Assembly (NCBI GenBank): GCA_963726245.1
Contig: CAVSBT010000030.1
Coordinates: forward strand, 37,480 to 101,479
Reading direction: 5' to 3'
Length of the DNA: 64,000 bases
From: an uncultured Chloroflexia bacterium
Lineage (GTDB): Bacteria > Chloroflexota > Dehalococcoidia > DSTF01 > JALHUB01
Shown here piece by piece: positions 12,441 to 35,471 of the stretch (position 1 is the stretch's first letter; each line of letters begins with the position of its first letter). The translations under genes were made by a program, and so were the position numbers. The notes beneath the pieces were generated by a model. That model searched no databases, was not told the origin of the DNA, and saw only the letters and a program-made list of their open reading frames with translations.

Positions 12441-13492
12441 ATGTCTACCGCGACTATTGGTCTCGTCTCGCCACCGACCTTCCTGCAGCGATACCGGCAG
12501 GAGATCGACGCCGAATTGCGGGCGCTGGTCGAGGGCCGGCCGGCGGCCTTCTCTCCCCAGGTGCGCTATCAACTGGGCTGGATCGACGAGCAGGGGCAGC
12601 CCTCGGTCAGTGGGCGGTGGCAAGGCGCTGCGTCCCTCCCTCGCTGCTCCTGACATGCGACGGCCTGGGCGGCGATCATAGTCAGGCGCTTCCGCTGGCG
12701 GCCGCCATCGAGCTCGCGCACAACTTCTCCCTCGTCCACGACGACGTACAGGACGGCGACCGGGAGCGCCGCCATCATCCTACAGCCTGGGTCCTCTGGG
12801 GCGTGCCCCAAGCCATCAACCTGGGGGACGCCCTGGCCGGCCTCGCCCTGTCCGCCCTCCACAGCGCTTGCGAACGCGGCCTGTCACCCTCCCAAGCGCT
12901 CGAGGCGCGCAGCATCCTGGCAAAGGCCTGCCTGGAGTTGATCGAAGGCCAGCAGATGGACCTCTCGCTCGAAGAAGAGAGGAGGGTCTCCCTCCCTGAC
13001 TACCTCATGATGGCGGAGAGGAAGACCGGCGCCCTCATGGGCGCCTCCCTGGAGCTGGGAGCTCTGGTCGCGGGAGGCGCGGGCGCGCAGCTTGCGGCCT
13101 GCCGTCAGGCCGGGCGCAGCCTCGGCCTCGCCTTCCAGGTTCGCGACGACTGCCTCGCTATCTGGAGCGACCGCTCTGAGACGGGCAAGGACGCCGGCGG
13201 CGACATCCTGCGCAAGAAGAAGTCACTGCCCGTCGTGTTCGGCCTTTCTCAGACAGGGGCTCTCGCCGCAGAGCTCGGCCGCATCTACAGACGAAACGCC
13301 CTCTCGCCGGAGGACGTGGAGCACGTCCGCTGTCTCCTCACCGAAGCGGGGGCGCTCACCTTCGCCCGCCGTCTCGCTGACGAGCTTGGCCAGACAGCGC
13401 TCCTCCAGCTACAGAGCGTGGGGCTGGCGCCCTGGGCGCAGGAGGAGCTCCGCCTGCTGGTCGACTACCTGATCCAAGATTTGAAACGATGA
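12441..13492 (+). CDS. polyprenyl (farnesyl/geranylgeranyl) diphosphate synthase; two close frame breaks (~12610 and ~12640)
   Basis: Starts at ATG 12441 (MSTATIG...) in the frame of ORF 12369. A short stretch GGKALRPSL is in the frame of ORF 12397. The rest is in ORF 12404 and carries both Asp-rich motifs (LVHDDVQDGD and FQVRDDCLAI). Confidence 0.85.
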
Positions 13493-13587
13493 ACGACATC
13501 CGGCAACGGCATGAGTAGGGGCGACCCCCGTGGTCGCCCGGCGGCCTAGGGCAGGCACGGGGGCCTGCCCCTACAGAGGGGATCGAG

Positions 13588-14469
13588 ATGCGGATCGAGC
13601 TGGCGACGCCCTTCGGGTTCTGCTTCGGGGTCAGGCGGGCCATCCAGATGGTCGAGCAGGCGGTCGCGGACAGTGGGGAGATCTCCAGCTTGGGATCCAT
13701 CGTCCACAACCCGAAGGTCGTCGGGCGCCTCGGCGAGCGGGGCGTACGCGTGGTGCAGCACTTCGATGATGTGGCGGGCACGGTGGCCTTCACCGCTCAT
13801 GGCGCCGGACCCGCGACCTATGAGGAGGCGGCGAAGCGGAGCCTGGCGGTGGTCGATACGACCTGCCCCATCGTGGCCAAGGCGCAGCGTGCGGCCACGC
13901 GGCTCACCAGAGCCGGCTTCCGCGTCATCATCTATGGCGATGAGATGCATCCTGAAGTCCGAGGAGTGCTGGCCTGGACCAGAGGAAAGGGGGTGGCCAT
14001 TCTGGATCCTCAAATGGAGATCGATATCCCGGGTCGCAAGGTGGCGCTGCTTTCGCAGACCACCAAGAGTCAGCAGGCCTTCGCCAGCTTTGTGGGCGAG
14101 TTCTTGGCCGCCAACATCGGCCGCATCAACGAGGTCCGCATCGTCAACACCACCTGCCCGGAGACGGAGGATCGCTATGAGGCTGCCCGTCGCCTGGCGA
14201 TGAACGCGGACCTGATGATCGTCGTAGGCGGAAAGAACAGCGCCAACACCTGCAAGCTGGCGGACACCTGCGCAGCAGCCGGCGCCAAGACCTACCACGT
14301 CGAGTCAGCCGAGGACATCGACCCCGCGTGGATCGAAGGCCGCGAGGTCGTGGGGGTGACGGCCGGCGCTTCTACGCCTGACGAGTGCGTGGATGAGGTC
14401 ATCACACACCTCAGGCAGCTCGACCGGCGGCGGAACGGGAGGGCGACTCGTGCTCGAACCGGCCGCTAA
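13588..14469 (+). CDS. ispH: 4-hydroxy-3-methylbut-2-enyl diphosphate reductase
   Basis: MRIELATPFGFCFGV, TTCPIV and NTTCPET supply the three cluster cysteines. VVGGKNSANT. 293 codons. Confidence 0.93.
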   Translation: MRIELATPFGFCFGVRRAIQMVEQAVADSGEISSLGSIVHNPKVVGRLGERGVRVVQHFDDVAGTVAFTAHGAGPATYEEAAKRSLAVVDTTCPIVAKAQRAATRLTRAGFRVIIYGDEMHPEVRGVLAWTRGKGVAILDPQMEIDIPGRKVALLSQTTKSQQAFASFVGEFLAANIGRINEVRIVNTTCPETEDRYEAARRLAMNADLMIVVGGKNSANTCKLADTCAAAGAKTYHVESAEDIDPAWIEGREVVGVTAGASTPDECVDEVITHLRQLDRRRNGRATRARTGR

Positions 14470-14995
14470 CCCCAGCAACGACCGCCGTCGCAACGGCGGC
14501 GCCTTCCGCCAGGCGACCCTGGAGACACCCGTTCTCCGCGAAGGCACGCGCCCCTTCTGCCTGACGGCCACCCTGCACATCCATACCGGCGACGGCCCTC
14601 ACTTCATCGACATCACCGACCAGGTGGAGGAGTTGCTGCAGCGCTCCGGCATGCGCACCGGGTTCGCGGTTGTCTTCTCCCGCCACACAACGGCCGCCAT
14701 CCGCATCAATGAGAGCGAGCCCCTGTTGCTGCGCGACATGGAGCTCCTGCTGGAACGTGTGGCGCCGCGGGACAGCTACTACCACCACAACGACCTCACG
14801 ACCCGCACCGTCAACCTGACGGAAGAAGAGGACATCAACGGCCACGCCCACTGCCGCCACCTCCTCATGGGGTCAAGCGAGGCGATCCCCGTGGTCGACG
14901 GCCGGCTCCACTTCGGTCGCTGGCAGCGCCTCTTCCTGGTAGAGCTGGACCGCCCACGGGACCGCGAAGTGGTGGTCCAGTTCGTGGGGGCCTAG
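14450..14995 (+). CDS. YjbQ/UPF0047 family (secondary thiamine-phosphate synthase-like)
   Basis: GTG 14450 after GGGAGGG. FIDITDQV...VFSRHTTAAIRINE...INGHAHCRHLLMGSS...GRWQRLFLVELD. Confidence 0.8.
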   Translation: MLEPAANPSNDRRRNGGAFRQATLETPVLREGTRPFCLTATLHIHTGDGPHFIDITDQVEELLQRSGMRTGFAVVFSRHTTAAIRINESEPLLLRDMELLLERVAPRDSYYHHNDLTTRTVNLTEEEDINGHAHCRHLLMGSSEAIPVVDGRLHFGRWQRLFLVELDRPRDREVVVQFVGA

Positions 14996-17039: not shown

Positions 17040-17913
17040 GTGGCCGCCCAGGCGGAAGGCATGAGCGCCGCCGAGGCCTTCGAGTACTGCCGCCGGTACG
17101 CCTCCTCGCACTATGAGAACTTCACGGTCGTCTCCTGGTTCCTGCCGCGACGCCTGCGCCCTCATTTCTTCGCCCTCTACGCCTACTGCCGCTTCGTCGA
17201 CGACCTGGGTGACGAGGCGACCGGCGACCGCCTGGCGCTCCTCGACGAATGGGAGGCGGCGCTCCGCCGCTGCTACGAGGGCCGGCCGCAGCACCCCATC
17301 CTGGTGGCGCTGGCCGAGACGGTGCGGCGAGCACGCCGTCCCCATCGAGCCCTTCCTGCGCCTCATCGAGGCCAACCGCATGGACCAGCGCATCCATCGC
17401 TACGCCACCTACGACGACCTCCTGCGCTACTGCCAGCACTCCGCGAACCCGGTGGGCCGCCTGGTCCTTCACCTCATGGGCTACACCGACGAGGAGCGCC
17501 GCCGCCTCTCGGACTGCACCTGCACCGCCCTCCAGCTCACCAACTTCTGGCAGGACGTGGCACGGGACCTCGAGAAGGGACGCATCTACATCCCGCTGGA
17601 GGACATGGCCCGATGCGGCTACCCGGAGGAGCGGCTCCTGACGCGGGTGGTCAATGATGCGTTCCGCCGCCTGATGGCCCTGGAGGTGGAGCGCGCCCGG
17701 CGCCTCTTCGAGGAAGGGCGCCGCCTCGAAGACCTGGTGGACCGGCGGTTCCAGGTCGACCTGCGGCTCTTCCGCCTGGGAGGCGAACGCATTCTGCGGG
17801 CCATCGAGAGACAGGGCTACGATGTGCTTCACCGCCGGCCCTCGCTGTCGAAGGGTGAAAAGCTATGGCTCATGTTGACTACGGTCGCACGACAGGCTCT
17901 GCCGCTGCGGTAG
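17040..17913 (+). CDS. hpnC: squalene synthase HpnC (hydroxysqualene synthase); frame break in CCCC run 17340-17343
   Basis: SHYENFTVVSWFLP...LYAYCRFVDDLGDE in ORF 17040, then PIEPFLRLIEANRMDQ...QLTNFWQDVARD in ORF 17113. Deleting one C restores the frame. Confidence 0.85.
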
Positions 17914-18809
17914 GCGTCCCTTCCTCCGGCCCCGTAGCCTCACCCGCGGAGGTGGAACGCGCCTATCGATCCTGCCAGGACTACACCAGGAGCCGCGCCA
18001 AGAACTTCTACTACGCCTTCGCCGCGCTGCCGCCCGCTAAGCGGAGGGCCATCTATGCCGCCTACGCCTTCGCCGGGCAGGTGGACGACGTAACCGACGG
18101 CGACGCGTCTCTGGAAGCCAAGACGTGCGAGCTGGCTGAGTACAGGCGGCGTCTGGACGGCTGCTACCACGGACACCGCCAGGAGCCCTTGTTCGTCGCC
18201 CTCGGTAACGCGGCCGACCGCTTCTCCCTACCACGCGAGCACTTCGAGGAGCTGGTCAACGGTGTGGAGATGGACCTCACCACCTACCGCTACCGCACCT
18301 TCGACGAGCTCCGCCCGTACTGCTATCGCGTAGCCTCCGTGGTCGGGCTCATCTGCATCCAGGTCTTCGGCCACCGGCCGCACCCGCGGGCCAGGGAGTT
18401 CGCGACGGACATGGGCATCGCCCTGCAGCTCACCAACATCATGCGTGACGTGAGAGAAGATGCGGAGCGCGGCCGCATCTACCTGCCTTTGGATGAGCTG
18501 GACCGCTTCGGCTACAGCGAAGCGCAGCTCCTGAGAGGCGACTACAACGAGGCCTTCCGCCGGCTCATGGCCTTCCAGGCGGGGCGCGCCCGTGGCCACT
18601 TCGCGAGCGGGCGGCTGCTGCTGCCTCTGCTCTCGATGCGCTCCCGCGTCTGCATCAACGTGCTCCAGGGGGTTTACTTCGAGATCCTCCGTCGCATCGA
18701 AGAGCGGCGGTACGACGTGTTCTCGGAGCGGGTCAGCTTCTCGGATCGCGAGAAGCTGACGCTGATTGGGAAGCTATGGTTGCAGGCCTTGAGGCCCCGC
18801 GCGGCATAG
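17865..18809 (+). CDS. hpnD: presqualene diphosphate synthase HpnD
   Basis: AKNFYYAFAALPPAKRRAIYAAYAFAGQVDDVTDG...ALQLTNIMRDVRED. Intact 314-codon ORF. Confidence 0.85.
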   Translation: MAHVDYGRTTGSAAAVGVPSSGPVASPAEVERAYRSCQDYTRSRAKNFYYAFAALPPAKRRAIYAAYAFAGQVDDVTDGDASLEAKTCELAEYRRRLDGCYHGHRQEPLFVALGNAADRFSLPREHFEELVNGVEMDLTTYRYRTFDELRPYCYRVASVVGLICIQVFGHRPHPRAREFATDMGIALQLTNIMRDVREDAERGRIYLPLDELDRFGYSEAQLLRGDYNEAFRRLMAFQAGRARGHFASGRLLLPLLSMRSRVCINVLQGVYFEILRRIEERRYDVFSERVSFSDREKLTLIGKLWLQALRPRAA

Positions 18810-20185
18810 GCCGCCGGGTCGCGATAGTCGGGGCGGGCCTGGCCGGTCTCGCCGCCGCCTGTGAGCTGGCGGAGCGCGGCTTCGCCGTCACGCTGTTGGA
18901 GAGACGGCCCTTCGCGGGCGGCAAGACCTACTCGTTCGTCCATCCCGCCAACGGAGTCGAGGTGGACAACGGCCAGCACGTTGTCCTCAACTGCTGCACC
19001 GCCTACGGCGATTTTCTCCGTCGCCTGGGGCAGTCTGAGGCCATCCGTCGCCAGCGCCGCCTCGACGTGGTGGTTATTTCTAGAGGGCGGGCGGCCCGCC
19101 TAGCCGCCCGAGCCCTGGCCGGCGCCGTTCCATCTCCTGTCCTCGCTTGCCGGCTACCGGCATCTGAGCCCGCGTCAGCGGCTGCGGGCCGTCCGGGGAG
19201 CGCTGCACATGCTGCGTACCGACGAGAGGACGCCCGGCCTGGACGACGAACCCTTCGCCGCCTGGCTCCTCCGCCATGGCCAGACCCCAGAGGTGATGCA
19301 GCGGCTATGGGACGTCATCGTAGTCGCCACGCTGAACGGGCGCTGTGAGGAGGTGAGCGCGGCCGCCGCCCTCATGGTGCTGAGGACCGGCTTCCTGCGT
19401 TCGGCCACCGGCGGCGGCATCGGCGTGCCCCGCGTCGCACTCTCTGCTCTGCACGTCGAGCCAGCCCTCCGCTACCTCCGGCAGCGCGGTGCCCAGGTCC
19501 TGACCCACGCCGCCGTTCGGGCGGTCCACGTCGAGGATGGCGCCGTGGTTGGGCTGTCGCTGGCGGACGGCGCCGCCATCGAAGCCGACGCCTACGTATT
19601 GGCGACGCCGCCCTCCGCCACGCGTCGACCTCCTGCCTCAGCCCTGGCGCGAGCACCCCCTCTTCGAGTCCATCGGACGAATACGCAGCGCGCCCATCGT
19701 CAACGTCCACCTGTGGTACGAAAGGCCCGTGATGGACCTCCCATTCGCCGCCTTCCTTGACGAAGACCTCCAGTGGGCCTTCAACACCTCCCTGCTGCGC
19801 GGCGAGAAGTCTGCCGGTCATCACCTGACCCTGTCTCTCAGCGCGGCCCAACGCTACATGGGCCTGGAGAAGAGGGAGATCGTCGAGAGGCTCACCGCCG
19901 CCCTCGGCCGCGTCTTCCCTGCCGCCCGTGGGAACGAGGTCGTACAGGCGGCGGTCATCAAGGAGCCAGAGGCGACCTTCCTAGCCGGAGCCCGGAGCGG
20001 GCCGGCGGAGACCGGGGCCCGTAACGCCCATCGCCGGCCTCTTCCTGGCCGGCGCCTGGACCGATACGGGCTGGCCCGCCACCATGGAGAGCGCCGTCCG
20101 CAGCGGCATGGCATGCGCCCAGGCCGTCGGCGAGCGGCTCAGCGCCGCCGGCCGGCCGGTTCGGGTGGCGGCTGCCGCCGTCTAG
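18776..20185 (+). CDS. hpnE: hydroxysqualene dehydroxylase HpnE (FAD amine-oxidase fold); three frame breaks (~19110, ~19620, ~19990)
   Basis: Dinucleotide motif VAIVGAGLAGLAAACELAERG. LPAPFHLLSSLAGYRHLSPRQRL in the frame of ORF 19209. IVNVHLWYERPV in the frame of ORF 19537. C-terminus LFLAGAWTDTGWPATMESAVRSG in a further frame, ending at TAG 20183-20185. Confidence 0.8.
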
Positions 20186-20199
20186 ATAGGGAGATTGGC

Positions 20200-21214
20200 A
20201 TGCCGGTGCCCCTGGCTCAAAGCGCCGCGCTCGGCGCCTACCTGGTGAAGAAGCGCCTGGCCGGACAGAAGCGGTTTCCCCTGGTCCTGATGCTGGAGCC
20301 TCTCTACCGCTGCAACCTGGCCTGCGCCGGCTGCGGCAAGATCCAGCACCCGGAGCCCGTACTGAACACCATGCTCTCGCCGGAGGAGTGCTTGCGGGCG
20401 GCCGAGGAGTGCGGCGCGCCCGTGGTCTCGATCGCCGGCGGCGAGCCGCTCATCCACCCGCAGATCGATGAGATCGTCGCCGGCCTGGTGGGACGGAAGC
20501 GCTTCGTGTACCTCTGCACCAACGCCCTTCTTCTGGAGCGCTCGTTGCCGAAACTGAAGCCGTCTTCTTACCTGACCGTCGGCGTGCACCTGGACGGACC
20601 CCGCGAGCTGCACGACGCCATGGTCCGCCGAGACGGCGTCTTCGACAAGGCGGTGCGCGCCATTCGCGCCGCCAAAGAGGCCGGCCTGCGGGTGAGCACC
20701 AACACCACCATCTACACCCACAGCTCGCCGGAGCAGATAGCGACGTTCTTCAACTTCCTGATGGGCCTGGGCGTGGACGGCCTCATGCTCTCGCCCGCCT
20801 ACGACTACCCGGAGGCGGCAGATCAGTCCGCCTTCCTGACGCGCCATCAGATGGTCGAGACGTTTCAACGGATCTTCGCTCAACAAGACCACGGCCGCTG
20901 GCGCTTTGAGCACACGCCCCTCTTCCTGGAGTTCTTGCAGGGGAAGCAGTCCCTCCAGTGCACCGCCTGGGGGAATCCCACCCGCAGCGTCCTGGGCTGG
21001 CAGCGCCCCTGCTACCTGATCGCCGACGGCTACGCCAGCCAGCTTCGAAGAACTGATGGAGGACACAGAGTGGGAGCGCTACGGCCGCGGCCGCGACCCG
21101 CGCTGCGCCAACTGCATGATGCACTGCGGCTACGAGCCCTCGGCGGTGCGGGCTACGTCCTCCAGCCTCCCGAAGATGGTCCGCGCTGCCCGCTTCGCGC
21201 TGACCGGGAGGTGA
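20200..21214 (+). CDS. hpnH: adenosyl-hopene transferase HpnH (radical SAM); frame break ~21042
   Basis: ATG 20200 after GGGAG. CNLACAGCG radical-SAM motif. After ...LIADGYAS the conserved tail SFEELMEDTEWERYGRGRDPRCANCMMHCGYEPSAV is read in the +1 frame, to TGA 21212-21214. Confidence 0.88.
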
Positions 21215-21232
21215 GCGACGCGCGAGCAGCCG

Positions 21233-22026
21233 GTGTCGCTGGCGATCCTGGCGGCTCTTCCCGCCGAGGCGCGGGCTTTGCGCCGCGCCCTCTCCCAGGT
21301 TGCGCCTTCAGCCAGCGACGCCGGCGTCTTCGAGGGCCGCATCGCCGGGCAGCGGGTGGTGGTGGGCGCCGGCGGTGTGGGCCGGGCTCCCACCGAGGCG
21401 ATGGCCCGCTTTACTGCTCCGAGACCTATCGCCCGCGGGTCATGCTCGTCGCCGGCGTGGCGGGGGCGCTGGACCCCGCCCTCGACAGGGGCCAGACAGT
21501 CGTCTCGCCGCGAGTGCGTCACCTCGAAGGTCCCCATCACGAGGACCATGGTGGCGAAGTCGATGACATACGCTGCGATGAGGGCCTCGTCCAGACCGCC
21601 TTGCAGGCGCTGCGCAAGGCCGGCGTCGCCTGTGCCCTCTCCGACTGCGCGACCGTAGACGTGGCACTTACCACCGTTCGCGAGAAGGCCGAGGCCTGGG
21701 ACCGTCTCGGCGCCGGCATCGTCGACATGGAGGCCTACTGGGCCGGCCTGGCGGCTCGCGAGCACGGGGTGCCGTTCCTGGCCGTTCGCGTTGTCCTGGA
21801 CCTGGCGAGCGAGCGCCTTCCCGCCTTCACCCGCGAGTGGCGCGGCCCCAGGGACTCCCCAAGGCTGGTCCGGCGCTGGCTGCTCCGGCCCTGGGAGGTG
21901 GTCGAGGCTCTGGTGCTCCGACGCCGCCTGGCGCAGGCGCTGCGGGCGCTCGAGCTGGCAATCGCGGCCCTCGCGCCCGCGCTGGCCTCAGCCCGCGCAG
22001 GCGAGGAAAGCGAGGCGAAACTCTAA
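21233..22026 (+). CDS. hpnG: hopanoid-associated nucleoside phosphorylase (HpnG-like); frame break ~21410
   Basis: N-terminus MSLAILAALPAEARAL...VVVGAGGVG (ORF 21233). Remainder VMLVAGVAGALDP...GAGIVDMEAYWA...PFLAVRVVLD in the frame of ORF 19537..22026. Position directly after hpnH. Confidence 0.72.
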
Positions 22027-22038
22027 CTAGAGACTGCG

Positions 22039-25002
22039 TCACAGGTCCAGCCGGAACCCCTGGCCGCGAACCGTGACTATCAGCTCCCTGGCGGCGCCCG
22101 CCGCCCGCAGCCTCTCGCGGACGCGGTGCACCAGCGAGTCGACGGCTTCCTCCGAGACGCCGGCGGCCTCCACCCCCGGCCAGACGCGGCGAATGATCTC
22201 CTCCCTCGTGCATAGCCTGCCCGCCTTCTCGTACAGGTGGGCGAGCAGTTCGTACTGCTCCCTCGACAAGGATGGCGTGACCTCTCGGCCCCTCACGAAG
22301 AGACGGTGCGTGGCGAGGTCCAGCCGCAGCTCCTCTTCGACTGCGACCGGGCTGTCCTGTTCGGCGGGAGCCGCCCGCTCTAGCGCCCCGACGGCGACCC
22401 CCGCCGGCTCACGATGCCGCCGCCCGTTGTAGAAGACCAGGGCCACGCCTGCGGCGACCGCCATGAGCGCGGCGACGGTGGCCAGCGAGACACCCAGCGG
22501 GACCGGGAACCCTCCCCCTGCACCACCACCGGCGCCGGCCTCAGGAGAGGAGACGGCCGTGCCGGCCCCGGTCCCGGACGGGAGCACGGAGATGGGCTCG
22601 GGCGCCGCCCAGTCGAGATCCCCGCTCTTCACTGTCACCTGCACTTGGCCTGAGCGAGGGGAGGTCAACTTAGCGGTCGCTATGCCATCGATGGTCAGGG
22701 CGGCGACCTCCTGGAGGGCGCCATCCGGCATCTGAAAGCTGAAGGTCACTTTCGTGTCGTTTGGAACCCGGTGTCCGTTGCCAGCCGCCAGCGGCTGCGC
22801 CAGCGACACGGCGAACTGCTGCCCGGCCACCGGCTGGCTGGGGTCGACCGTGAGCTGAAGGTGCTGGGAGGGGTCAGCCTTCACCTGCTCGTTCAGGTCA
22901 TAAAGGACGTAATCGTTGTAGACGTAGTCGACGGGCAGGCTGCCGTGGCCAGCGCCGGTGCGGAAGATGGTCGGGTCCTGGAAGAGGGCCCGCAGGGATA
23001 CCCTCAAAGACGGCTCTGTCTTGCTGTACAGGGCGATGAACAGGTCGACGTTTCGAAGCTCGCCGGCGTCCAGGTGATAGGGCGAGTTGTAGGCGAAGAC
23101 AACGACCTTCTTGCTGCGCAGGTCGAAGAGCGACGGGCCCCTTCCCAGGAAGTCCTTCAAGACCTCTGAATCGGGAAAGCGACTCGGATCGCGCTCCAGG
23201 AAGGCGAAGACCAGCCAGTCGGCCTCCTCCACCGCCTTTCTCACTTCAGCGTCCCCCGTCCCTCTCAGGACGCTCCCCAGCTCGCTGAAGCTGATCGTCC
23301 TCAGACTGTCCTGCGAAACGCGGCCCGGGAACATCTCGGCGACCAGGCCGGCGAGCTTGCCTCGGGGCCAGAGGGGCCGGTAGCCGACGAGGTCCGAGGG
23401 CGCGGAGCACGTTGGGTCATCCCAGCACTCGACGAACAGGATCTTCTGGCCGAGGGTTGGCGCGGGCAGCGTCCTCCTGAACTCCTCCACGGCTGGCGGG
23501 ACGGATGAACGTGAGAGCTCTTTCGGCAATCGACTCCACTTTGGCTGCGCTGTCTGCCAGTCCCACGGCGGCGGGCCCGCTGGTGGCGGCCGTGACCACC
23601 GCCGGCTGCAAGCCCTGGTATAGGCGCTGCTTGAGAGAGAGGACCCGCCGTGCAGCGTCATCGACTCGCTCTCGCACCTGCGCCGTCCGCCTCGTACCGG
23701 CTCACCAGGTAGTCGACGGTCGCCGGGAGGTCTTGCCACTGCCAGGGCCGGATCAGCGGCAGGATGTCATTGCCCGCCATCAGGGCCTCCAGCGCCACGT
23801 CGCCCTGCCGGTACGTCCCGAACTTGTTCAGCGCATAGGCCTGCACCGCGCCCGCCGCCAGGTCGTCGGCCACGGTGAGGCCGCCGGCCTCACGCCAGGC
23901 GGCGAAGTCCGGCAATCCCATGAAGGTCTGCATGCAACTGGGGCTGAACGTCACGGGCGTCCGGCCGTCGCAGCCGGCGACGCCGGGGTAGCTCAGGTGG
24001 GAGTTCATGATTCCGTCGGTGACGCCGGGGTCTCCGGGCTTGCCCCGCGAAACGGCGGCGAAGGGCGCCAGGTCCACCTGCGCCAGCTCCTCCAGCGTCT
24101 TCCCCACGACGATGGGGACGTCCTCGTAGTCGACCTGCCGCGTGCTGCGGCCGTGGCCGGGGAAGTGCTTGGCCACCGTCGCCAGCCGCCCTCCTCCGCA
24201 CTTCTCCACGCCCCGCGTATAGGCGGCGCCCATCTCCCCCACCCAGCGGGGGTCGCCGCCGAAGACGCGAATCCCCTGGTCGCCGGGGCCGCCCGACCGG
24301 GGCGAGTCGAGCACGTCCAGGTCGGGACCGAAGAGCATGTTGACGCCGACGGCAGCCAGCTCCTGCCCAACGATGCAGCCCACCGTCTCGGCCTGACTCG
24401 GGTCGAAGGTGGCTCCGATGGCCATGTTGCTGGGGATAGGCGTGAAGCGGTTCAAGAGCCGGGTGGAGGGACGGCCGTCACCCTCGTGGTCGATGGTGAC
24501 GAACAGCGGCAGGCAGTAGGCCGTGCCCCCCGCGGTGCCCGCAGAGGCCTCACAGGCCGCCTGCTGCAACTGCTGGGTAAGACCCGCCACCTGCGACGGC
24601 GTGTCAGGGTCGCTGTCCTGTCGGGAAGTCGCAGTGGACGGGGTCGTCGGCGGTCCCGTTCACTATGTTGCAGTTCTCCGGGCTGAGGTAGACGCCTCCC
24701 ACCTTGTTCTCGGCGATGAACGCGCGGGCCTCGGGGCTCAGCTCCGGGCCCTGGAACCCCACGACAAATAGCTGCTCCACCTTCTCCCGCGGGCTCAAGG
24801 ACTGGAGGAGCATATTGACGAGGTCGGCTTGCGCCGGGGTAGGCTGCTGAGCGAGAGCCGGTGGGCTTCCCAGGGATGCAGCGACGAGCACCAGCGCCAG
24901 CAGGAACAGTCGTGTTCTCACGCCGCGAGTATAGCGCAGCCCCACAGCGGCGAATAGCCGCCCAGCGAACGGCATATCGCAAGACAAGCGCAAGGAAACC
25001 AC
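22039..25002 (-). CDS. membrane-anchored regulator: signal peptide, GH3 (NagZ/beta-glucosidase-like) ectodomain, Ig-like region, one TM helix, C-terminal OmpR-type winged helix; three frame breaks (~24600, ~23690, ~23490); start uncertain (25002/24975/24921)
   Basis: - Signal-like RTRLFLLALVLVAASLG (ORF 24604..25002).
- GH3 motifs VTIDHEGD and KHFPGHG (ORF 23658..24590).
- ORF 22039..23739 contains, uninterrupted, VVVFAYNSPYHLD (GH3 C-domain-like), a beta-rich segment, the TM helix VSLATVAALMAVAAGVALVFY, and LSREQYELLAHLY...VHRVRERL...TVRGQGFRLD. Confidence 0.75.
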
Positions 25003-25110
25003 GCTTGAAAAGGCGAATTTGCGTCAAGCAAGGAGGCCGCCCCAAGAACATGATGAGCCCTGGACGGGGGCTCCGGTAGCGTCCGCCGCTCGGTTGAAGG
25101 GAGAAGCGCA

Positions 25111-27628
25111 ATGGCCCGCACGATCCGCCTGCTGCGATGGTGCCTTGTCGGCAGCATAGTAGCGGCGCTGCTGGGCTACGTTGCCCTCTACCTTCTGCCG
25201 CTACCGCCTGCCCCCGCCGCCCCACCTCTGGCGGAATCGACGAAGATCCTCGACCGGCAGGGCCGTGTCCTGTACGACTCCGGCACCGCCGAGGGCCACC
25301 ACACCTACCTGCCGCTCGACCAGGTGCCCGATCACCTCAAGCAGGCGGTCATCGCCACCGAGGACGCCTCCTTCTATAGCCACCCCGGCGTCGACATCGG
25401 AGCTATCCTCCGCGCCGCGTTCACGGACCTGCGCGATCGCGAGCTGACCTCCGGCGCCAGCACCATCACGCAGCAGTTGGCCCGCAACCTCTACTTCGAT
25501 CCAGCGGAGCGCTCCTCTCGCAACCCGCTCCGCAAGCTGCGCGAGGCCGTGCTCGCCCTGCGGATGGACCGCACGCTCTCCAAAGACGAGATCCTGGAGC
25601 GGTTCCTGAACCAGGTCTACTTCGGCAACCTGGCTTACGGCGTGGAGGCGGCCTCGCGCACGTACTTCGGCAAGGGCGCCCGCGACCTGGACCTGGCCGA
25701 GTCCGCCTTGCTGGCCGGGCTGCTCCAGTCGCCCGCCGCCTACGACCCCTTCACGCAGATGGACGCCGCCAAGGCCCGGCAGGCGACGGTCCTCACGCGG
25801 ATGGCCGATGAGGGGTACATCAGCCGCTGCCGAAGCGGAGGCGGCAGGGGCGGAGCCGCTGTCCCTGAACCCCACGCCCTTCCCTATCGAGGCGCCTCAC
25901 TTCGTGGCCTGGGTGCGGGACCAGCTCCCAGGCCTGGTGGGCGAGGCGGCCGTCGCGCAGGGCGACCTGCGCGTCTACACGTCGCTCGACCTGGACCTGC
26001 AGCAGTCAGCGCAGGCGGCCGTGGCCTGGCACGTGGGCCAGCTCAAGGACCGCAACGTGACCAACGGCGCCGTCGTCGCCATCGACCCGCAGACCGGGCA
26101 GGTGCTGGCCATGGTGGGAAGCGCCGACTACTTCGACGCCGATATCGACGGCGCCGTCAACCTCACACTGGCCGAGCGGCAGCCGGGAAGCTCCATCAAG
26201 CCCGTCGTCTACGCGGCCGCGCTGGAGGCGGGGTTCACGCCGGCGTCGCCGCTGCTGGACGTGCCGACAACGCTGAAGACCCGTCGCGGCGAGCCCTACG
26301 CGCCGAACAACTACGACTTCACCTTCCACGGCGTCGTCCCCCTGCGGGAGGCGCTGGCCTCCTCCTACAACGTGCCCGCCGTCCGCGTCCTCGCCGCCAT
26401 CGGCGTGGAGCGGGCCTTCGAGATGGGCCGGCGGCTCGGCCTCACGACCTTCCGCGACCCGTCACGCTACGACCTGTCGCTGACCCTTGGCGGCGGCGAG
26501 GTGCGGCTCCTGGACCTGACGGCGGCCTACGCGGCCTTCGCCATCGGAGGCGCGCGCGTCGACCCCGTGGCCGTGCTGCGCGTCGAGGACAGCGCCGGCA
26601 ACGTCCTGTACGAGGCGCCGCGCGCCCTCGCGCGAGCCGGTGGTCTCGCCCCAGACCGCCTACCTCATCAGCGACATCCTCTCGGACAACGACGCGCGGG
26701 CGCCCGCATTCGGCCTGAACAGCCCACTCCGCCTCGACCGGCCGGCCGCCGCCAAGACCGGGACCACCAGCGACTTCCGCGACAACTGGACGGTGGGCTA
26801 CACGCCTCAACTGGCCGTGGGCGTGTGGGTGGGCAACGCCGACAACAGCCCGATGCGGAACGTGTCGGGCGTCGATGGGGCGGCGCCCATCTGGCGGGAC
26901 GTGATGCAGACAGCCCTGAAGGGCACAGCCAGCCGAGGGGTTCTCGGAGCCGGAAGGGATCGAGCGGGCGTCCGTATGCCTGCCGTCCGGCCTCCTGCCC
27001 ACGCCCTACTGCCAGCGGCAGCGCACGGAAGTCTTCGCCGCCGGGACCGCGCCCACCGCCCAGGACGACTACTACCGGCCGGTTCTCGTCTGCGACGCCA
27101 CGGGCCAAGCCGTGACGCCCGGCGACACGAGCTGCCCCGGCAGCGCCAGCGAGCGCGTCTTCGCCTTCGTGCCGCTGGAGGCCATCCCCTGGGCCCGGGA
27201 GGCAGGCATCGCCCTTCCGCCGCTGCCCCCGTACACGACAGCGGTGGATACCACGCGGGGCCGTGGGACACTCACACCCCCGCCTGAAGGCGGGGGCATG
27301 GATTCGTCGCCTAATGCCCCAGCCTTCAGGCTGGGGTCTTCTGAGGCCCTGCGGCTGACCTCACCGGCCGACGGCGCGGTCTTCCACCTGAGCCGCGAGC
27401 TCGGCCCGGAGGACCAGACGCTGCGCATCGAGGCTCTGCCCGCGACGCCGGTGCGCTACGTGGAGCTCTACGTCGACGGCGCGCTCATCGGCCGCGTGGA
27501 CGCTGGTCCCTATCGGGCGTGGTGGAGTCCCAGCCCCGGGCTCCCACCAGGTCCGCGCCCGCGCCGTCGGTCTGGATGGAAACGAGACCTGGAGCGAAAC
27601 AGCGAACGTTGCGGTCCTGCCGCCGTAA
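25111..27628 (+). CDS. pbpC: class A penicillin-binding protein (transglycosylase/transpeptidase), PBP1C-like C-terminal domain; four +1 frame breaks (~25823, ~26638, ~26928, ~27540)
   Basis: GT51 motifs [12 protein letters not shown] and [12 protein letters not shown]. Transpeptidase motifs [26 protein letters not shown]-terminal beta domain [12 protein letters not shown]...[12 protein letters not shown]. Ends at TAA 27626-27628. Confidence 0.85.
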
Positions 27629-27638
27629 GGAGGGAATC

Positions 27639-30600
27639 ATGCTGTCGCGTCTGAAGACCCGCATCCAATCCCTGTCGGTCCTGCTGCGAGACCGCTGGAC
27701 GCGGCTGGGCCGGCGGCGACAGGTCGCGGTCGGCATCGTCGGCGCGCTGGTCGTGGCGGGCGGCGTCAGCGCCGCCGTTGTCCTCGGCCTGAGCGGCGGC
27801 GGCCTGCCTTCCTGCGACAAGCCCCTCTGCGCCGAGGTCATCGGCCCCGTGGGGGATGCTGTCCAGCCGATGGCGCCGGTGCGCATCCGGCTGGCCGGCG
27901 ACCTGAATCGCAAGGCGGCCGTCGAGGCCCTGCAGATCAGCAACCAGCCGGCGGGCGACAAGCGCTTCGAGGGGGACGTCCTGACGTTCCGCCCGGAGTG
28001 GCCCGGCTTCGCCAGAGGCGTGAGCTACGACGTGGCCCTGGCTCTGCCCTCCTCGGAACTCCCCGTGGGAGCGGAGCCCGTCGACATGAGCTTCCGCTTC
28101 ACCACCGACGGGAAGCTGCAGGTCTCGTCGGTCTTCCCCGAGGACGGCACACAGGAGGTGGCGCTGGACGCCGGCATCATGGTGCAGTTCAACCGCTCCG
28201 TGGCGCCCCTCACCGTCATCGACGAACGCGGGCCGCAAGGAATCATCGAGTTCGACCCGCCGGTCGCGGGCGAGGGCCGCTGGTTGAACACGTCTCTCTA
28301 CACCTTCACGCCGGCCGCCGCCGGGTGGGCGCCTGCCGCCCGATACACCGCCACCGTCAAAGCCGGGCTGGCCAACCAGTTGGGGGCCGAGCTCGAGAAG
28401 GACTACGTCTTCTCGTTCACAACGGTCTCCCCAAAGGTGCTGATCTTCTTCCCGCTGGACAACACCAAGTTCGTGGGTCCTGAAGAGGAGATCAAGGTCG
28501 GCTTCAACCAGCCGGTGGACCGGCCCTCGGCCGAGGCCGGCTTCTCGCTGGTTCCCCAGGGCACGACGAACCCGGTCGCCGGAAGCTTCGAGTGGCTCGA
28601 CGACCGGACGTTCGTGTTCCACCAGGCGCAGCCGCTCGCCCTCGCCACAACGTTCGAGGCGGCGGTCCGCGCCGGCGTCAGGGCCCTCGACGCCACCGCC
28701 GCGACAGCCGAAGACGTGCGCTGGACGTTCACCAGCATCGGGCTGCCTCACGTTGCCTCCACCGACCCCGAGAACGGCAACCAGCATGCCCAGCGCAACG
28801 GCGTCCGCATCACCTTCACGAACCCCATGGACCAGAAGTCCGTGGAGGACCACATCGTCATTTCGCCCAAGCCGGACAGCGACCCCTACATGAGCTGGGA
28901 GGCGACGGGCCTCAACCTCTACCTGGGCTTCGATATGAAACCCTCGGCCGTCTACCGCGTTACCCTGAGCACCGACGCCAGGGACCGCTACGGCCAGCCC
29001 CTCGTCGAGCCGTTGGACCTGAGCTTCGTGACCGAGCGGATGCAGCCGGGCTTCAGCATCTTCCGCTCCTCCCGCTCGGGCACGTTCAACGTCTACCTGG
29101 ACCCGACGATATTCGTTAGCTCCTGGAACCTGGAGCGCCTGGACTTCGAGCTCTATCGCATCGACCGCAACGGCCTCATCGCGACCGAACGCGAGCCCTA
29201 CCGGTCGTACACGCCGCCGCCGACCGGTCTGGTGCGGAAGTGGAGCGAGTCCGTTGAGAACCCACCTCTCGACCAGCCGACCCTCACATCCACGCGGCTG
29301 GCACAGGAAGACTCCAAGCTGCCCGAGGGAGTCTACTTCCTGCGCGTCTCCGCGCCGGGAACCGATGGCTACGACGAGATGGCCATCGTTGTCAGCAGCG
29401 TGAACGTCGCCAGCAAGTGGACGCGGGACGACCTGCTGACCTGGCTGGTGGACATGTCGACGGGCGAGCCGATAGCCGGACTGCCCTTCCAGGTCCTGGA
29501 CTCCGCCGCCAACGTCGTCGCCAGCGGTACGACAGATACGGACGGCCTGGCTCACATCAAGGTGCCGGAACCGCCTCAAGGCAACTACTGGTCGGGCTAC
29601 TACCTGTCGGCTGAGCAGGGCGGGCGGACGATCCTGGCGGGCACCGCCTGGAACGACGGCATCGGCCCCTGGAACTTCAGCTCAGACATGAGCTTCGAGT
29701 TCGCGCCGCCCGACCTCGTCGGGTATCTGTACACCGACCGGCCCATCTACCGCCCTGGCGAGACGGTGTACTTGAAGGGCGTCGTGCGCGGGGACGACGA
29801 CGCACGCTACTCAATGCCCTTCCGGCCCCACGCTTGCCCTCACGATTCGCGACGAGCAGGGCCGGGTGGTGAACAGCCAGTCTGTCACCCTCTCCGACAT
29901 GGGAACCTTCGACACGGACCTCGCCCTCAGCTCCGAGGCGTCGACCGGCATGTACTACGCCTCCCTGACGCAGGGCCAGCCCTCGCCAGACGTCTACCGC
30001 CCGGACGTGGCCTACGTTTCCTTTAGGGTGGCGGAGTTCCGCAAGCCCGAGTTCGAGGTCAACGTCACCACTGACAAGGACTCTTATGTCAACGGCGAGA
30101 CGATCCAGGCGAGTGTCGCGGCCGACCTCTTCTTCGGCGCTCCCCTGGCCAACGCCGACGTGAAGTGGCAGATCACGGCGCAGCCGTTCTCCTTCCAGCA
30201 CGAGGACTACCCAGGCTACAGCTTCAGCGACTACCAGCGGGACTACCAGTACGACGACTACGGCCCGCGCTACGAGCCCCAGCAGTACATGCGCGGCGAG
30301 GGTACCGGCAAGACGGACGCCCAGGGTCGCTTCAGCTTCAGCGCGCCGGCGAATGTCTCCAGCGACCCGCTGAGCCAGACCTTCACCGTCGAAGCCACGG
30401 TCACCGACCAGAACGCGCAGTCGGTCGCCGAGTTCACGGCCGTCGAGGTGCACAAGGGGAAGTTCTACCTCGGCCTCAAGCCCGAGTCATACGTCGCCTT
30501 CGCCGGCGAGGAGACGAAGGTCAGCCTTGTGAGCATCGAACCCGATGGCAAGCCGGTCGCTAACGTGCCGGTCAAGGTCAGCATCTACGAGCGCAAGTGG

Positions 30601-33600
30601 CGCACCATCCGTCAGCGCGACCCCGACGGCCAGCAGCGCTACCACAGCGAGCCCGAGGATACCCTTCAGGAGACCATGGACGCCCGCACCGGCGCGGACG
30701 GGACGGGCGAGTTCGCCTTCACGCCGGCGAAGAGCGGCGAGTACTACGTGGTGGTCGAGGCCAAGGACAGCGCCGGCAACCCCATCAAAGCCTCGGACTT
30801 CGTGTGGGCGTCCAGCGCAGAGCACGCGAGCTGGTCGGTTGGCAACGACGACGTCATCAAGCTTGTCGCCGACAAGGCCGAGTACAGCCCCGGCGACACG
30901 GCGAAGATCCTCGTCGCAGCGCCCTTCGAGGCCAGCCGCGGGCTTGTCACCCAGGAGCGCGGCCGCCTCATAGGCTACGAGCTACATGACTTCCAGACGA
31001 ACTCCGACATCCTCGAGGTTCCGATCACCGCCGACCACATCCCCAACGTCTACGTCGGCGTCACCCTCTTCAAGCCGCCGACGGCGGACAACCCGATGCC
31101 CCAGGTGAAGTTCGGGCTGGTGGAGCTCAAGGTCTCCACCGACCAGAAGAAGCTTCGTATCTCGATCGAGCCCGACAAGGACAAGCTTCAGCCCCGCGAC
31201 ACGGTCAAGTACAAGATCACCACCACCGACAGCGAGGGCCATGGCGTCCCGGCAGAGCTCTCGCTGGCCATGGTTGACCTATCCGTGCTCTCACTTCAGG
31301 ACGAATTCGCCCGGCCCGTCCTCCAGGCCTTCTGGGACCAGCGGCCGCTCGGCGTGCTCACAGGCTCCTCCTTCGCCGTCTCCATCGACCGCGCCAACGA
31401 GCTGGCCATCAGTCGACAGGCCGGCGGCGGCAAGGGCGGCGGCGGCGGCGCCGGCGACCAGACGCGCACCTTCTTCCCCAACACCGCCTACTGGGAACCG
31501 AGCCTGCGCACGGACGGCGACGGCAAGGCCACGGTTGAGGTGAAACTGCCGGATACCCTCACCACGTGGCGTCTCACCGCCCGAGGCGTCACGACCGACA
31601 CCAAGGCCGGGGAGGCCCGCAACGACATCGTCACGTCCAAGGAGCTGATCGTGCGGCCGGCGGTGCCGCGATTCCTGGTCGCCGACGATCACGCCTTCCT
31701 GGGGGCGATCGTCCACAACTTCAGCGACGCTTCTCTTGACGTCGACGTGTCGTTGACCGCGGATGGGCTGGACGTCGAGGGGAAGGACACGCAGTCGGTG
31801 ACCATCGAGCCCGGCGAGGACGCCCTCGTGCGCTGGGAACGACGGCGCCGCCGGGCCGCGACAGCGTGGACCTCACGTTCAAGGCCGAGGGCGGCGGCAG
31901 GTCCGACTCCGTGGGGCTGACGCTGCCCCTGTACGGGTTCGTCACGCCCGAGACCGTGGGCACGGCAGGAGAGGTGACGGACGAGGCGTCGGAAGCCATC
32001 GAGGTCCCCTACTACGTGCGGCCCGACGCCGGCGAGCTGACGGTGAGCGTGTCGCCCTCGCTGGCGGCCGGGGTGAACACGGCCATCGACTACCTCAAGG
32101 AGTACCCGTGGGAGAGCACCGAGGTCACGGTCAGCCGCTTCGTGTCGGTCCTGGCCCTCCAGCGCGCCACCGAGCAGCTCGGGCTCAGCGACCTCGGCGC
32201 GCCGTCGACCGACGTGGATGCGCTGGTCCAGCGATCGCTGCAGCGGCTGTACAACTACCAGCACCAGGACGGCGGCTGGGGCTGGTGGTCCGGCGACGAC
32301 TCGGACCCGGCGATCAGCGCTTACGTAGTCGCCGGCATGGCTGAGGCCAAACGCGCCGGGTTCAGCGCGGACCAGTACGTCGACGACAGGGCCGCCGCAG
32401 TACCTCACGGGCGAACTGGACAAGTCGCGCGACGTGCTCACGCCCGAGCTCGACCTGAGCGCCTACATCCTCTACGCGCTGGCCCTTGACGGCCGCGGCG
32501 ACCTGGGGAGAACCTTCTCCATGGCCGAGCGGCGGGCCAACCTCAGCAACACCGCTAAGGCCTGGATCGCCCTGGCCATCAAGCTGAGCGGCGGCGACGA
32601 GAAGGACCCCCGCCTCACCTCGCTCCTCTCCGACCTCCAGTCGGCCGCCATCCCCTCGGCGACGGGCAACCACTGGGAGGAGGCGCAGTACAACCCGGAC
32701 ATCTTCGGCGACAGCACGCAGACCACGGCCCAGGTGCTCCAGGCTCTCACCGAGTTCCAGCCCGAGCACCCGCTGGTGGACGGCACGCTGCGCTGGCTGA
32801 TGGTCGCCAGGAAGGAGGGCCACTGGGAGTCCTCCCACGACACGGCCATCGCCCTCCTGGCGATCACCGACTTCATGCTCGTGCGCAAGGACGCGCAGGA
32901 GTCCTTCGACTATCGCGTGGAGCTGAACGGCGACGCCAAGCTCAAGGGTACGGCCGAGGCGGGCAAGGTGAACCAGGAGGATAAGACCGTCATCGACATG
33001 AAGGACCTGTTGAAGGACACGGTGAACGAGCTGAAGCTGACGCGCCAGCCATCCGATGCCGCCGGCCGCCTCTACTACACGGCGCACCTGCGCTACTTCA
33101 CGCCGGCTGAGAACATCGAGGCGGCGAACTACGGCATCGGCGTCTCCCACCAGTACTTCCGGGCCGACGTGAACCCCGAAACGCCGGTGACGGAGGTGCA
33201 GCTCGGCGACACCGTGATGGTCAAGGTGACCCTCACGGCGCCGTCCGACCTGAACTTCCTGGTGCTGGAGGACTACCTGCCCGCGGGCCTGGAACCGATC
33301 GATACCAGCCTGAAGACGACGTCCGGCGAGATCCAGCGCCGCCTCTACGAGGAGGAGCGCAAGGCGTACCAGATTCAAAAGCGTTACAGCCCCTTCGGCC
33401 ACACGGACATCCGGGACAACCGCGTCGCCTTGTTCGCGCGCTTCGTGCCCAAGGGCGTGTACGAGTACACCTACTTCGCCCAGGCGACGACGCCCGGCGA
33501 GTTCAAGCTGGCGCCGGCCACGGCCTACGAGCAGTACTTCCCGGAGGTCTGGGGCCGGAGCGACGGCGGCACGTTCGTCGTGCGAGAGGAGGCGGGCGCC

Positions 33601-33828
33601 TCGCGGGGCCGGCCCCTCGAGCCTCCCCAGGTGAGCATCACGGGCGACGCGCCTCCCGACGCCGCGCCGCCATCGCGCGAGGTCTCGACACGGCTTCCGT
33701 GCTTCGCTGCCCCCTTGTACTGCCTGGATGAATCCGAGAGAATGCGCAATCAGGCCCAGAGAGGCAGTGGAAATTGGCGGCGCCTAAAGGGTACAATCTG
33801 CTGGGCTGGAAGCAGCCCCTTGCCGTGA
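27639..33828 (+). CDS. bacterial alpha-2-macroglobulin family protein (~2,060 codons), thioester motif degenerate; three frame breaks (29826-29829, ~31850, ~32395)
   Basis: ATG 27639 after AAGGAGGG. N-terminal membrane anchor, long series of MG-type beta domains, YLKEYPWESTEVTVSRF at the position of YPYGCxEQ, C-terminal receptor-binding-like domain. Fragments are ORFs 27519..30026, 29866..31920, 31866..32489, 32434..33828. Confidence 0.8.
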
Positions 33829-34788: not shown

Positions 34789-35469
34789 GTGAAGAAGATC
34801 CTCGTTGTCGATGATGAGCCCACGCTGGTAGCAACGCTCAAATACAACCTGGAGCGCGAAGGCTACCAGGTGTTCACCGCCTCTGACGGTGAAGCAGGCC
34901 TGTCTCTGGCACGCGCCAGCCACCCCGACTTGATTCTTCTCGACCTCATGCTGCCCGTTCTCGATGGCCTCGAAGTCTGCCGCATCCTTCGCCGCGAGAC
35001 GGCAGTCCCGATCCTAATGCTCACCGCGAAGGTCGAGGAGGTGGACAAGGTGGTAGGGCTGGAGCTGGGGGCCGACGACTACGTCACCAAGCCCTTCAGC
35101 ACGCGTGAGCTCCTCGCTCGCGTCCGTGCTCTCCTCCGCCGCGCCGAGACGGCGCCCGCAGCCGAGGCGGAGCTCCTGACCACGGGCGATCTTCAGGTAG
35201 ACCTGCGACGGAGGGAAGCGTCGAGGGACGGCCGGGCGCTGGCCCTCAAGCCCAAAGAGTACGAGTTGCTGCTTTTCTTGGTGCGGAACCGCGGCCGCGC
35301 CTTCACCCGCGAGGAGCTCCTGAGCCGCATCTGGGGATATGACTTCGCCGGCGACTCCCGTACTGTCGACGTCCACGTCCGCTGGCTGCGCCAGAAGATC
35401 GAAGAGGCGCCGGCCAGCCCCACGCGCCTGATCACGATCCGCGGCGTCGGCTACCGGTTCGAGGCGTAA
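34789..35469 (+). CDS. OmpR/PhoB-family response regulator (Pho-type by context)
   Basis: [11 protein letters not shown]...[14 protein letters not shown]...TAK receiver, plus w[12 protein letters not shown]...KEYELLLFL...[12 protein letters not shown]...TIRGVGYRF. Confidence 0.9.
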
Positions 35470-35471
35470 GG

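Follow-up and report, generated by a model that had tools for sequence, protein, structure and literature searches.

Can a glycoside hydrolase anchored on the outer face of a cell membrane also be the sensor of a transcription factor on the inner face? This question is raised by a minus-strand gene (22039-24921) in a stretch of 64,000 nucleotides, here called the window, from an uncultured Chloroflexia bacterium (contig CAVSBT010000030.1, positions 37,480 to 101,479, assembly GCA_963726245.1). An initial annotation, made from the sequence of the window, had read the gene as a sugar-hydrolase domain wired to a DNA-binding domain and had proposed that it senses cell-wall fragments to control the genes divergent from it. 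With moderate confidence, we favour the view that the locus encodes a transmembrane one-component transcription regulator, in which a glycan sensed by an extracytoplasmic glycoside hydrolase family 3 (GH3) module would act through a cytoplasmic winged helix-turn-helix (wHTH) domain on CTTGCG repeats, the frame breaks in the gene being errors.

In the public sequence, the gene is split into four overlapping minus-strand reading-frame pieces between 25002 and 22039. The signal peptide and the beginning of the GH3 domain lie in 24604-25002, the GH3 domain with its KHFPGHG motif (PF00933) in 23658-24590, a short middle segment in 23417-23677, and the remainder in 22039-23739, which extends to the stop and ends in a Trans_reg_C domain. 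The initial annotation had assigned a GH3 C-domain-like segment, a beta-rich region, one transmembrane (TM) helix and Trans_reg_C to this last uninterrupted frame, and the signal peptide and the GH3 catalytic domain to the frames upstream of it, all as found here. Its three suspected frame breaks, at about 24600, 23690 and 23490, were mapped by alignment to the DNA of a related locus (L001, 84% identity) to single extra bases on the minus strand at 24619 (A), 23679 (A) and 23493 (G). With these bases deleted, a single open reading frame of 959 codons extends from GTG 24921 as far as the stop at 22039 and shows neither in-frame stops nor decay. A contig from another sample (L019), 96.4% identical and with the same synteny (methyltransferase and alpha-2-macroglobulin genes, then pbpC divergent from the GH3 gene), lacks all three extra bases and has its own, different one-base indels near its 3' end. 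We regard the three breaks as sequencing or assembly errors, because L019 reads through every one of them and the fusion is uninterrupted in at least 14 further genomes or contigs of Chloroflexota. The window and L019 differ by about one gap per 250 nt, intergenic DNA included, and the neighbouring pbpC (three frames) and alpha-2-macroglobulin (at least four frames) genes at 25111-33828 are broken likewise; the window is the product of an error-prone long-read assembly, and its broken genes are not pseudogenes.

The start of the gene is most likely GTG 24921 (MRTRLFLLALVLV...ALA-QQ), not the codon at 25002. This GTG is the sole start conserved across the window, L001 and L019, and the signal peptide that it yields (MRTRLFLLALVLVAASLGSPPALA-QQ) is canonical and resembles those of the orthologues. 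The stretch upstream of the codon that opens "RLFAA..." appears noncoding, because an indel between the window and L001 shifts the frame there while the nucleotides are still conserved. It follows from this start that the region shared with pbpC is 24922-25110 (189 nt), which replaces the 108 nt (25003-25110) given by the initial annotation.

The corrected protein combines an enzyme fold and a DNA-binding domain on either side of one TM helix. Its signal peptide (residues 1-24, 24850-24921; MRTR, LFLLALVLVAASLG, then SPPALA-QQ) has a hydropathy peak of 2.09 and the same N-terminus in orthologues. The GH3 N-terminal TIM-barrel domain follows (residues ~43-429, 23633-24795), matched by Pfam Glyco_hydro_3 (PF00933) at 125 bits against a cutoff of 27 (residues 45-429, E 2e-36) and by PDB 6k5j (E 3e-39). 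Pfam Glyco_hydro_3_C gave no match to the C-terminal alpha/beta-sandwich domain (residues ~466-686, 22861-23524), and this domain was assigned by structure prediction. For the 85%-identical protein P0002, an AlphaFold model (66 homologues, mean predicted local distance difference test (pLDDT) score 90.5) was compared by Foldseek, and superposes on the structures of two-domain GH3 beta-N-acetylglucosaminidases, 6K5J and Bacillus subtilis YbbD/NagZ (4GYJ, 3BMX), with target-normalised TM-scores of 0.76-0.85 over 640-700 columns. The description of this part as a GH3 C-domain-like segment is thus correct, although Pfam is silent on it. Beyond the GH3 module, the P0002 model continues with a beta-sandwich, a disordered Gly/Ala/Ser-rich stalk and the TM helix. 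The beta-sandwich corresponds to a predicted immunoglobulin (Ig)-like domain (residues ~687-781, 22576-22860), assigned from the all-beta segment of the AlphaFold model together with a sub-cutoff Pfam match to Big_1 (E about 1e-3 to 2e-3). The TM helix (residues 810-828, 22435-22491; Kyte-Doolittle 2.37) is followed by RRHR and by a 32-residue, Ala/Pro/Gly-rich cytoplasmic juxtamembrane linker of low pLDDT (residues 829-860, 22339-22434).

The extreme C-terminus is an OmpR/PhoB-type winged helix (residues 862-959, 22042-22335), matched by Trans_reg_C (PF00486) at 59-61 bits against a cutoff of 26.2 (E 1.6e-16). A model of the C-terminal part of the window protein shows the canonical effector domain with a beta-sheet, three helices and a wing (in model numbering, strands at 385-396, helices at 407-418, 426-433 and 444-460, wing at 468-478; pLDDT 76-92). 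Among solved structures, the DNA-binding domains of the response regulators RegX3, PhoB and WalR come closest to it. Response_reg, HisKA and HATPase had no match in the protein at E values up to 0.1; it is not a two-component response regulator, in line with the earlier statement that neither kinase nor receiver is present.

Exactly two hydrophobic segments were found by hydropathy in 11 out of 11 members scanned. Lys and Arg residues flanking the TM helix number 0 on the N-terminal side and 3 on the C-terminal side in the window protein, and 4-6 on the C-terminal side in ten orthologues (0-1 versus 3-6 across all 11 members). In addition, the clade has ten conserved ectodomain cysteines, likely paired. 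Together, hydropathy, the positive-inside rule and these cysteines strongly support a type I single-pass membrane protein with GH3 outside and wHTH inside, the arrangement that had been proposed for it. In the corrected frame no stop separates the GH3 part from the TM-wHTH part, and the predicted topology does not place the wHTH outside the cell.

The catalytic residues of the ectodomain are largely recognizable. The protein belongs to GH3 by its PF00933 score, its PDB match and an S/T/A-D-x-L nucleophile motif behind strand 7, with D352 (23865-23867) of TVADDL aligned to the nucleophile of 6K5J and YbbD and invariant in 18 family members. Members with a wHTH and members lacking one alike conserve this Asp together with the motifs IDHEGD, GIRVFGG, KHFPGHG (24150-24170) and SH. 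The NagZ motif with its Asp-His dyad, K-H-[FI]-P-G-[HL]-G-x4-D-[ST]-H, is absent, the sequence here being KHFPGHG-RSTRQV-D-YE. The site of the NagZ catalytic His, seven residues after GHG, is occupied by Asp or Glu in every member (D264 in the window, 24129-24131), and that of the dyad Asp by Q, V, L or P; the D/E residue is kept, as is the KH of KHFPGHG, whether or not a wHTH is present. The NCBIfam NagZ equivalog NF003740 scores 72.3 bits, far below its cutoff of 207. Of the catalytic Asp/His residues by which the initial annotation had proposed to tell an enzyme from a pseudo-enzyme, the nucleophile Asp stands, whereas the Asp-His dyad is replaced by a conserved Asp/Glu. From these alignments, the ectodomain is probably an active hydrolase with a carboxylate acid/base.

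The fusion recurs in related genomes. A scan of species representatives, with one genome per species, found 13 loci, 11 of which (L006-L016) match through the wHTH; all 11 are from Dehalococcoidia or "Chloroflexia" metagenome-assembled genomes and three are closed chromosomes. Ten of the 11 are one uninterrupted frame of 942-960 codons, from the signal peptide to ...RG(Q/R)GFRL(D/E)L, and the eleventh (L015) is cut by masked sequence. Further uninterrupted fusions are P0037, P0134, P0135 and P0136. P0037 (MCJ7510542.1) bears only the NCBI name "winged helix-turn-helix domain-containing protein", and the other three are the full-length fusions among 18 proteins recovered at E<1e-30 by HMMER from 1.84 billion cluster representatives. 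On this sampling, the family is tiny and confined to uncultured Chloroflexota, and the fusion is real, conserved in a few related species, and rare. An artefactual fusion of two adjacent genes was rejected, as the frame runs on unbroken, with a conserved linker, in more than ten genomes.

No part of the protein is better conserved across lineages than the wHTH, and relatives bear different tails. P0002, P0008 and P0010 share the ectodomain and the TM anchor but lack a wHTH, and L017 and L018 have a multi-TM tail. P0004, a metagenome protein of 599 aa, carries a class III adenylate/guanylate cyclase (PF00211) between the TM helix and the wHTH, which is a second cytoplasmic output on the same sensor; class III cyclase domains work as dimers. 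Because of these different tails, the ancestral state looks like a membrane-anchored GH3 enzyme that gained cytoplasmic output modules later. After the wHTH-less multi-TM GH3 paralogue of L018 (Anaerolineae, 12907-14829) come genes for a Ser/Thr protein kinase and for an FHA-Trans_reg_C protein; the wHTH of the latter shares 53% identity with that of the window. This pattern, fused here and adjacent in L018, supports a functional link between the GH3 family and this type of wHTH. In L001 (1681-5348), which represents the closest other species, the GH3 gene ends right after the membrane anchor (RRRRRQAWTSIDGERWRFY and stop) without a wHTH, and is followed by Cgl0159-family and PFK genes that are both absent from the window; its pbpC is 89-94% identical to that of the window. 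This arrangement is either a rearrangement or a chimeric contig.

Upstream of the gene, a -10 box TATACT lies 6 nt before the GTG (24927-24932, minus strand, 5' end at 24932, counted from the start codon). A TATACT/TATAAT box without a -35 element is found 6-9 nt before the start in every lineage, including L006-L016, L020, L022 and L024, and this short distance suggests that the gene family is expressed from leaderless mRNAs. A consensus scan of 21800-25300 for sigma-70 promoters and terminators found nothing, including no -35 match, the -10-only leaderless reading coming from the comparative alignment. A window-wide scan for leaderless starts gave two against about 0.85 in shuffles, a count of little weight because the frames are broken.

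The initial annotation had suggested looking for repeats in the intergenic region, and a direct repeat was found there. This candidate operator, CTTGCGCTTGTCTTGCG (24978-24994, same strand as the gene), consists of CTTGCG-N5-CTTGCG with an 11-nt period, begins 61 nt upstream of the -10 box and about 73 nt upstream of the start codon, and is the only match with at most one mismatch in the 64 kb. In L016, at 44% protein identity, the exact CTTGCG-N5-CTTGCG occurs once, about 71 nt before the start. The octamer TTGCGCTT occurs only twice in the window, both times in the pbpC/GH3 intergenic region; its second copy (25104-25111, minus strand) overlaps the pbpC ATG and the ribosome-binding region on the opposite strand. 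Moreover, YTGCGCTTNYC was found once per locus in 12 loci, beside the gene in 11 of them, and phased arrays lie upstream of -10 boxes in four lineages. In the largest clade the array precedes the downstream GH31 gene and not the regulator (-57, -46 and -35 from a TAGAAT box), and in L007 and L020 four-unit arrays stand farther upstream. Hexamer pairs, with a background of 4.8e-5 per nt (about 0.02 expected per 400-nt flank), were found in four of eight lineages with the wHTH and in none of three loci without it. A strict count of hexamer chains over all sequence gave 29 against 13 expected, with one chain of three or more; the signal is position near the gene, not global enrichment. Direct repeats of 11 bp abutting a promoter without a -35 element are the classical geometry of PhoB/OmpR sites, and because of this geometry we tentatively predict that the CTTGCG repeat is the operator of the wHTH protein, at a little less than even chances.

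These features can be assembled into a mechanism. A two-domain GH3 exo-glycosidase module of the YbbD/NagA fold with an Ig-like spacer outside, and a receiver-less wHTH some 32 residues past the membrane inside, are shown or strongly supported. The GH3 module would bind, and probably cleave, a beta-linked glycan at the cell surface, and its occupancy may alter the pairing or clustering of the proteins in the membrane. The tethered winged helices would then meet on tandem, 11-bp-phased CTTGCG repeats upstream of -10-only, -35-less promoters and recruit RNA polymerase, as do PhoB, OmpR and ToxR. The best candidate target in this genome would be the gene's own leaderless promoter (autoregulation), with a second, weaker site possibly at the pbpC start, while in other lineages the same repeats stand before an adjacent glycosidase gene. 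On these predicted targets, the regulon appears to be lineage-specific and glycan-related.

Several points weigh against this proposal. DNA binding, ligand and enzyme activity are all properties that we infer from sequence, and because the NagZ acid/base His is absent, neither activity nor substrate can be read from known GH3 enzymes. Neither the TM helix nor the linker is modelled with confidence in the AlphaFold prediction for the C-terminal half. The repeat pattern was drawn up with the data already in view, and confidence in the operator was lowered because L023 and L024, fetched later as a prospective test of the motif, do not carry it in its strict form. L020 and L022 have the repeat only in degenerate or displaced form, the distance from repeat to -10 box varies between lineages, and L001 keeps the repeat though its gene lacks the wHTH; another factor could bind it.

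Among known systems, almost all transmembrane one-component regulators that have been studied are, to our knowledge, either ToxR-like, with the wHTH first, or Bacteroides hybrids. Such regulators are defined by a DNA-binding domain and at least one transmembrane region in one protein (Demey et al. 2023, PMC10269533), which hydropathy and Pfam show for the window protein. They are common: one census counted about 50,000 of them and lists GH18, GH42, GH16, GH28 and GH39, not Glyco_hydro_3, among the associated domains (PMC10269533). Like ToxR, CadC and TcpP, which activate promoters from the membrane (PMC5430869, PMC10629549, PMC10269533), the window protein is a single polypeptide with one TM helix and an OmpR-type wHTH at the cytoplasmic face, and uses no phosphorelay. 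Unlike them, with an N-terminal cytoplasmic wHTH, a TM helix, a C-terminal periplasmic sensor and no signal peptide, it runs from signal peptide through sensor and TM helix to wHTH. This reversed order, described from the outset as an inverted ToxR-like layout, places the protein outside the strict ToxR-like receptor family. Its wHTH is also closest to the effector domains of RegX3, PhoB and WalR, and its sensor is an enzyme fold.

In the anti-sigma-I factor RsgI6 of Clostridium thermocellum, which has an extracellular GH10, a glycoside-hydrolase fold likewise serves as the sensor of a single-pass transducer that reports glycans to transcription (PMC4711584). However, the N-terminus of RsgI is cytoplasmic, it acts via a separate sigma factor and proteolysis, and the GH10 has very low activity, whereas in the window protein the output is a fused DNA-binding domain and the catalytic residues look intact. 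RsgI6-GH10 is the nearest functional counterpart with a glycosidase fold as extracellular sensor. The best matches in sequence and fold are B. subtilis YbbD (NagZ; 3BMX/4GYJ) and Paenibacillus NagA (6K5J), which share the two-domain GH3, the nucleophile Asp and KHFPGHG; they are soluble or lipoproteins with an Asp-His dyad, whereas the window protein has Asp/Glu at the His position and adds the Ig-like domain, TM helix and wHTH. Bacteroides SusR and hybrid two-component sensors, and TfoS and ChiS of Vibrio, have a glycan-sensing domain outside and a C-terminal DNA-binding domain in the cytoplasm, and control glycan-utilisation genes. Their DNA-binding domains are of AraC/HTH_18 or other types, kinase and receiver modules are present in many of them, and, unlike here, their sensors are binding domains and not GH3 enzymes. 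The trigger enzyme PutA unites enzyme and DNA-binding domain in one polypeptide, so that turnover can set transcription, but it is peripheral and cytoplasmic, whereas in the window protein the membrane separates the two parts.

Literature searches turned up no account of a GH3-wHTH regulator, as the initial annotation had anticipated. The protein belongs to the known transmembrane one-component regulators, and the GH3 sensor with a C-terminal PhoB-type wHTH is new. With a whole GH3 enzyme, its catalytic residues apparently intact, as the sensor of a C-terminal PhoB-type domain, the regulator would be minimal in design and could show how one helix relays information from active site to DNA; it could also serve as a compact part for glycan biosensors. 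The predicted operator and leaderless promoter make the hypothesis directly testable.

The ligand and the targets allow other explanations. The initial annotation had the GH3 domain sense GlcNAc-terminated muropeptides and the wHTH control the divergent genes. These are a class A penicillin-binding protein (PBP) gene of PBP1C type, pbpC (25111-27287, plus strand; three frames; Transgly and Transpeptidase; 89-94% identical to the intact L001 gene), and a bacterial alpha-2-macroglobulin (A2M) gene (27519-33828, plus strand; at least four frames; Big_5, bMG3, MG2, bMG5, bMG6, A2M_BRD, A2M and bMG10). Their Pfam domains and strand bear out that part of the annotation. The fold closest to the muropeptide-cleaving YbbD/NagZ and NagA, the shared 189-nt region and the overlap of the only second TTGCGCTT in 64 kb with the pbpC start speak for such a model, as do the class A PBP and extracytoplasmic function (ECF) sigma factor on the divergent side of the gene in L020, a distant lineage, and a perfect repeat upstream of an OatA-like acyltransferase in L022. 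This last repeat, TTGCGCTTTCCTTGCGC (L022 9669-9690), lies between a TetR gene and the acyltransferase gene (Acyl_transf_3 and SGNH), 5 kb downstream of the GH3-wHTH gene. However, the divergent pbpC-A2M neighbourhood is limited to the species group of the window (window, L019 and L001). When the PBP and A2M pieces of the window were searched against 18 loci by tblastn, only L001 matched; both were absent within 10 kb in L002 and L006-L018, and they were not seen among the genes called on L021-L024. On the tblastn result, pbpC-A2M was rejected as a conserved partner. In L001, moreover, the pbpC adjacency is kept by a GH3 gene without wHTH, the NagZ D-[ST]-H is missing from the family with the equivalog score far below cutoff, and an alternative regulator lies close by. 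Just downstream of the A2M and methyltransferase genes, 34789-36443 (plus strand) encodes an ordinary OmpR-type response regulator (Response_reg and Trans_reg_C) and a HAMP-PAS-HisKA kinase, and this two-component pair is an alternative candidate regulator of the envelope pair.

The neighbours in other lineages count in favour of a glycan-related role. The gene order in the largest clade is FGGY sugar kinase, GH3-wHTH, GH31 and GGDEF; a GH51 arabinofuranosidase gene lies directly downstream in L021 and L023, and L023 also has a CUT1 sugar ABC transporter on the divergent side. In L022 the gene is near an MFS transporter and lipases, and in L024 near a glycosyltransferase. The neighbours of the main clade (GH31, FGGY, GGDEF) and of L001 (Cgl0159, PFK) were searched for in the window and none was found. 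Muropeptide sensing is one possibility only, and, with GH31, GH51, FGGY kinase and CUT1 genes beside the gene in other lineages, control of pbpC-A2M is weakly supported; the muropeptide ligand and the pbpC-A2M target are unsupported by the comparative evidence, and we consider this model unlikely. The same holds for a bolder form of the mechanism, in which an active surface exo-glycosidase would itself be the transcription factor, with turnover or occupancy of its active site passed through the single helix and the PhoB-like wHTH to CTTGCG repeats at -35-less leaderless promoters of its own gene and of pbpC-A2M as an envelope-repair pair. If true, it would tie cell-wall or glycan fragments directly to envelope defence without a kinase.

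An equally doubtful alternative is that the protein is mainly a surface-anchored glycosidase, with the CTTGCG repeats belonging to another regulator or being generic promoter elements and the target of the wHTH lying elsewhere. It would account for P0002, P0008 and P0010, for the repeat retained in L001 and for the failed prospective test in L023 and L024. However, the strong conservation of the wHTH across lineages argues for a conserved DNA target, and the repeats, spaced as 11-bp direct repeats in the manner of OmpR/PhoB sites, track the gene across differing contexts. Less probable still is that the same domains signal by regulated proteolysis at or in the membrane, which would free the wHTH as a soluble factor, as in RsgI or in the reported cleavage of CadC. 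Single-pass sensors with extracellular glycan modules do use site-1/site-2 proteolysis (RsgI: PMC10328401, PMC12203970), and the TM helix is flanked on either side by juxtamembrane segments that are disordered and of low complexity. Against this, no protease gene is conserved beside the locus in the neighbourhoods compared, no cleavage site is identifiable in the sequence, and ToxR-type regulators act while tethered (PMC10629549). That the gene is a dead pseudogene with genuine frameshifts, of which only a fragment of at most 566 residues could be made, is very improbable, for although the public assembly has the same breaks (P0018 is identical to the frame at 23658-24590), all three are +1 insertions absent from L019 with its different indels, gaps against L019 run through intergenic DNA too, pbpC and A2M are broken likewise, and the corrected frame shows no stops or decay.

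Two further observations concern sequence next to GH3-wHTH genes. In L021, the spacer that separates the GH3-wHTH stop from the GH51 gene downstream contains two perfect palindromes at 1958-2056 (TGCGGGTTGAAACCCGCA and CTGCGGGATTTATCCCGCAG), which may form a terminator or a different kind of operator. In the window, a hopanoid-type gene cluster occupies 17865-22026 (plus strand), with a squalene/phytoene synthase at 17865-18809. At 19537-22026 (plus strand), an 829-codon single-frame open reading frame runs through amine-oxidase (HpnE-like), radical-SAM and DUF3463 (HpnH-like) and PNP_UDP_1 (HpnG-like) segments, and is either a genuine fusion or an artefact that arose from indels and a high GC content.

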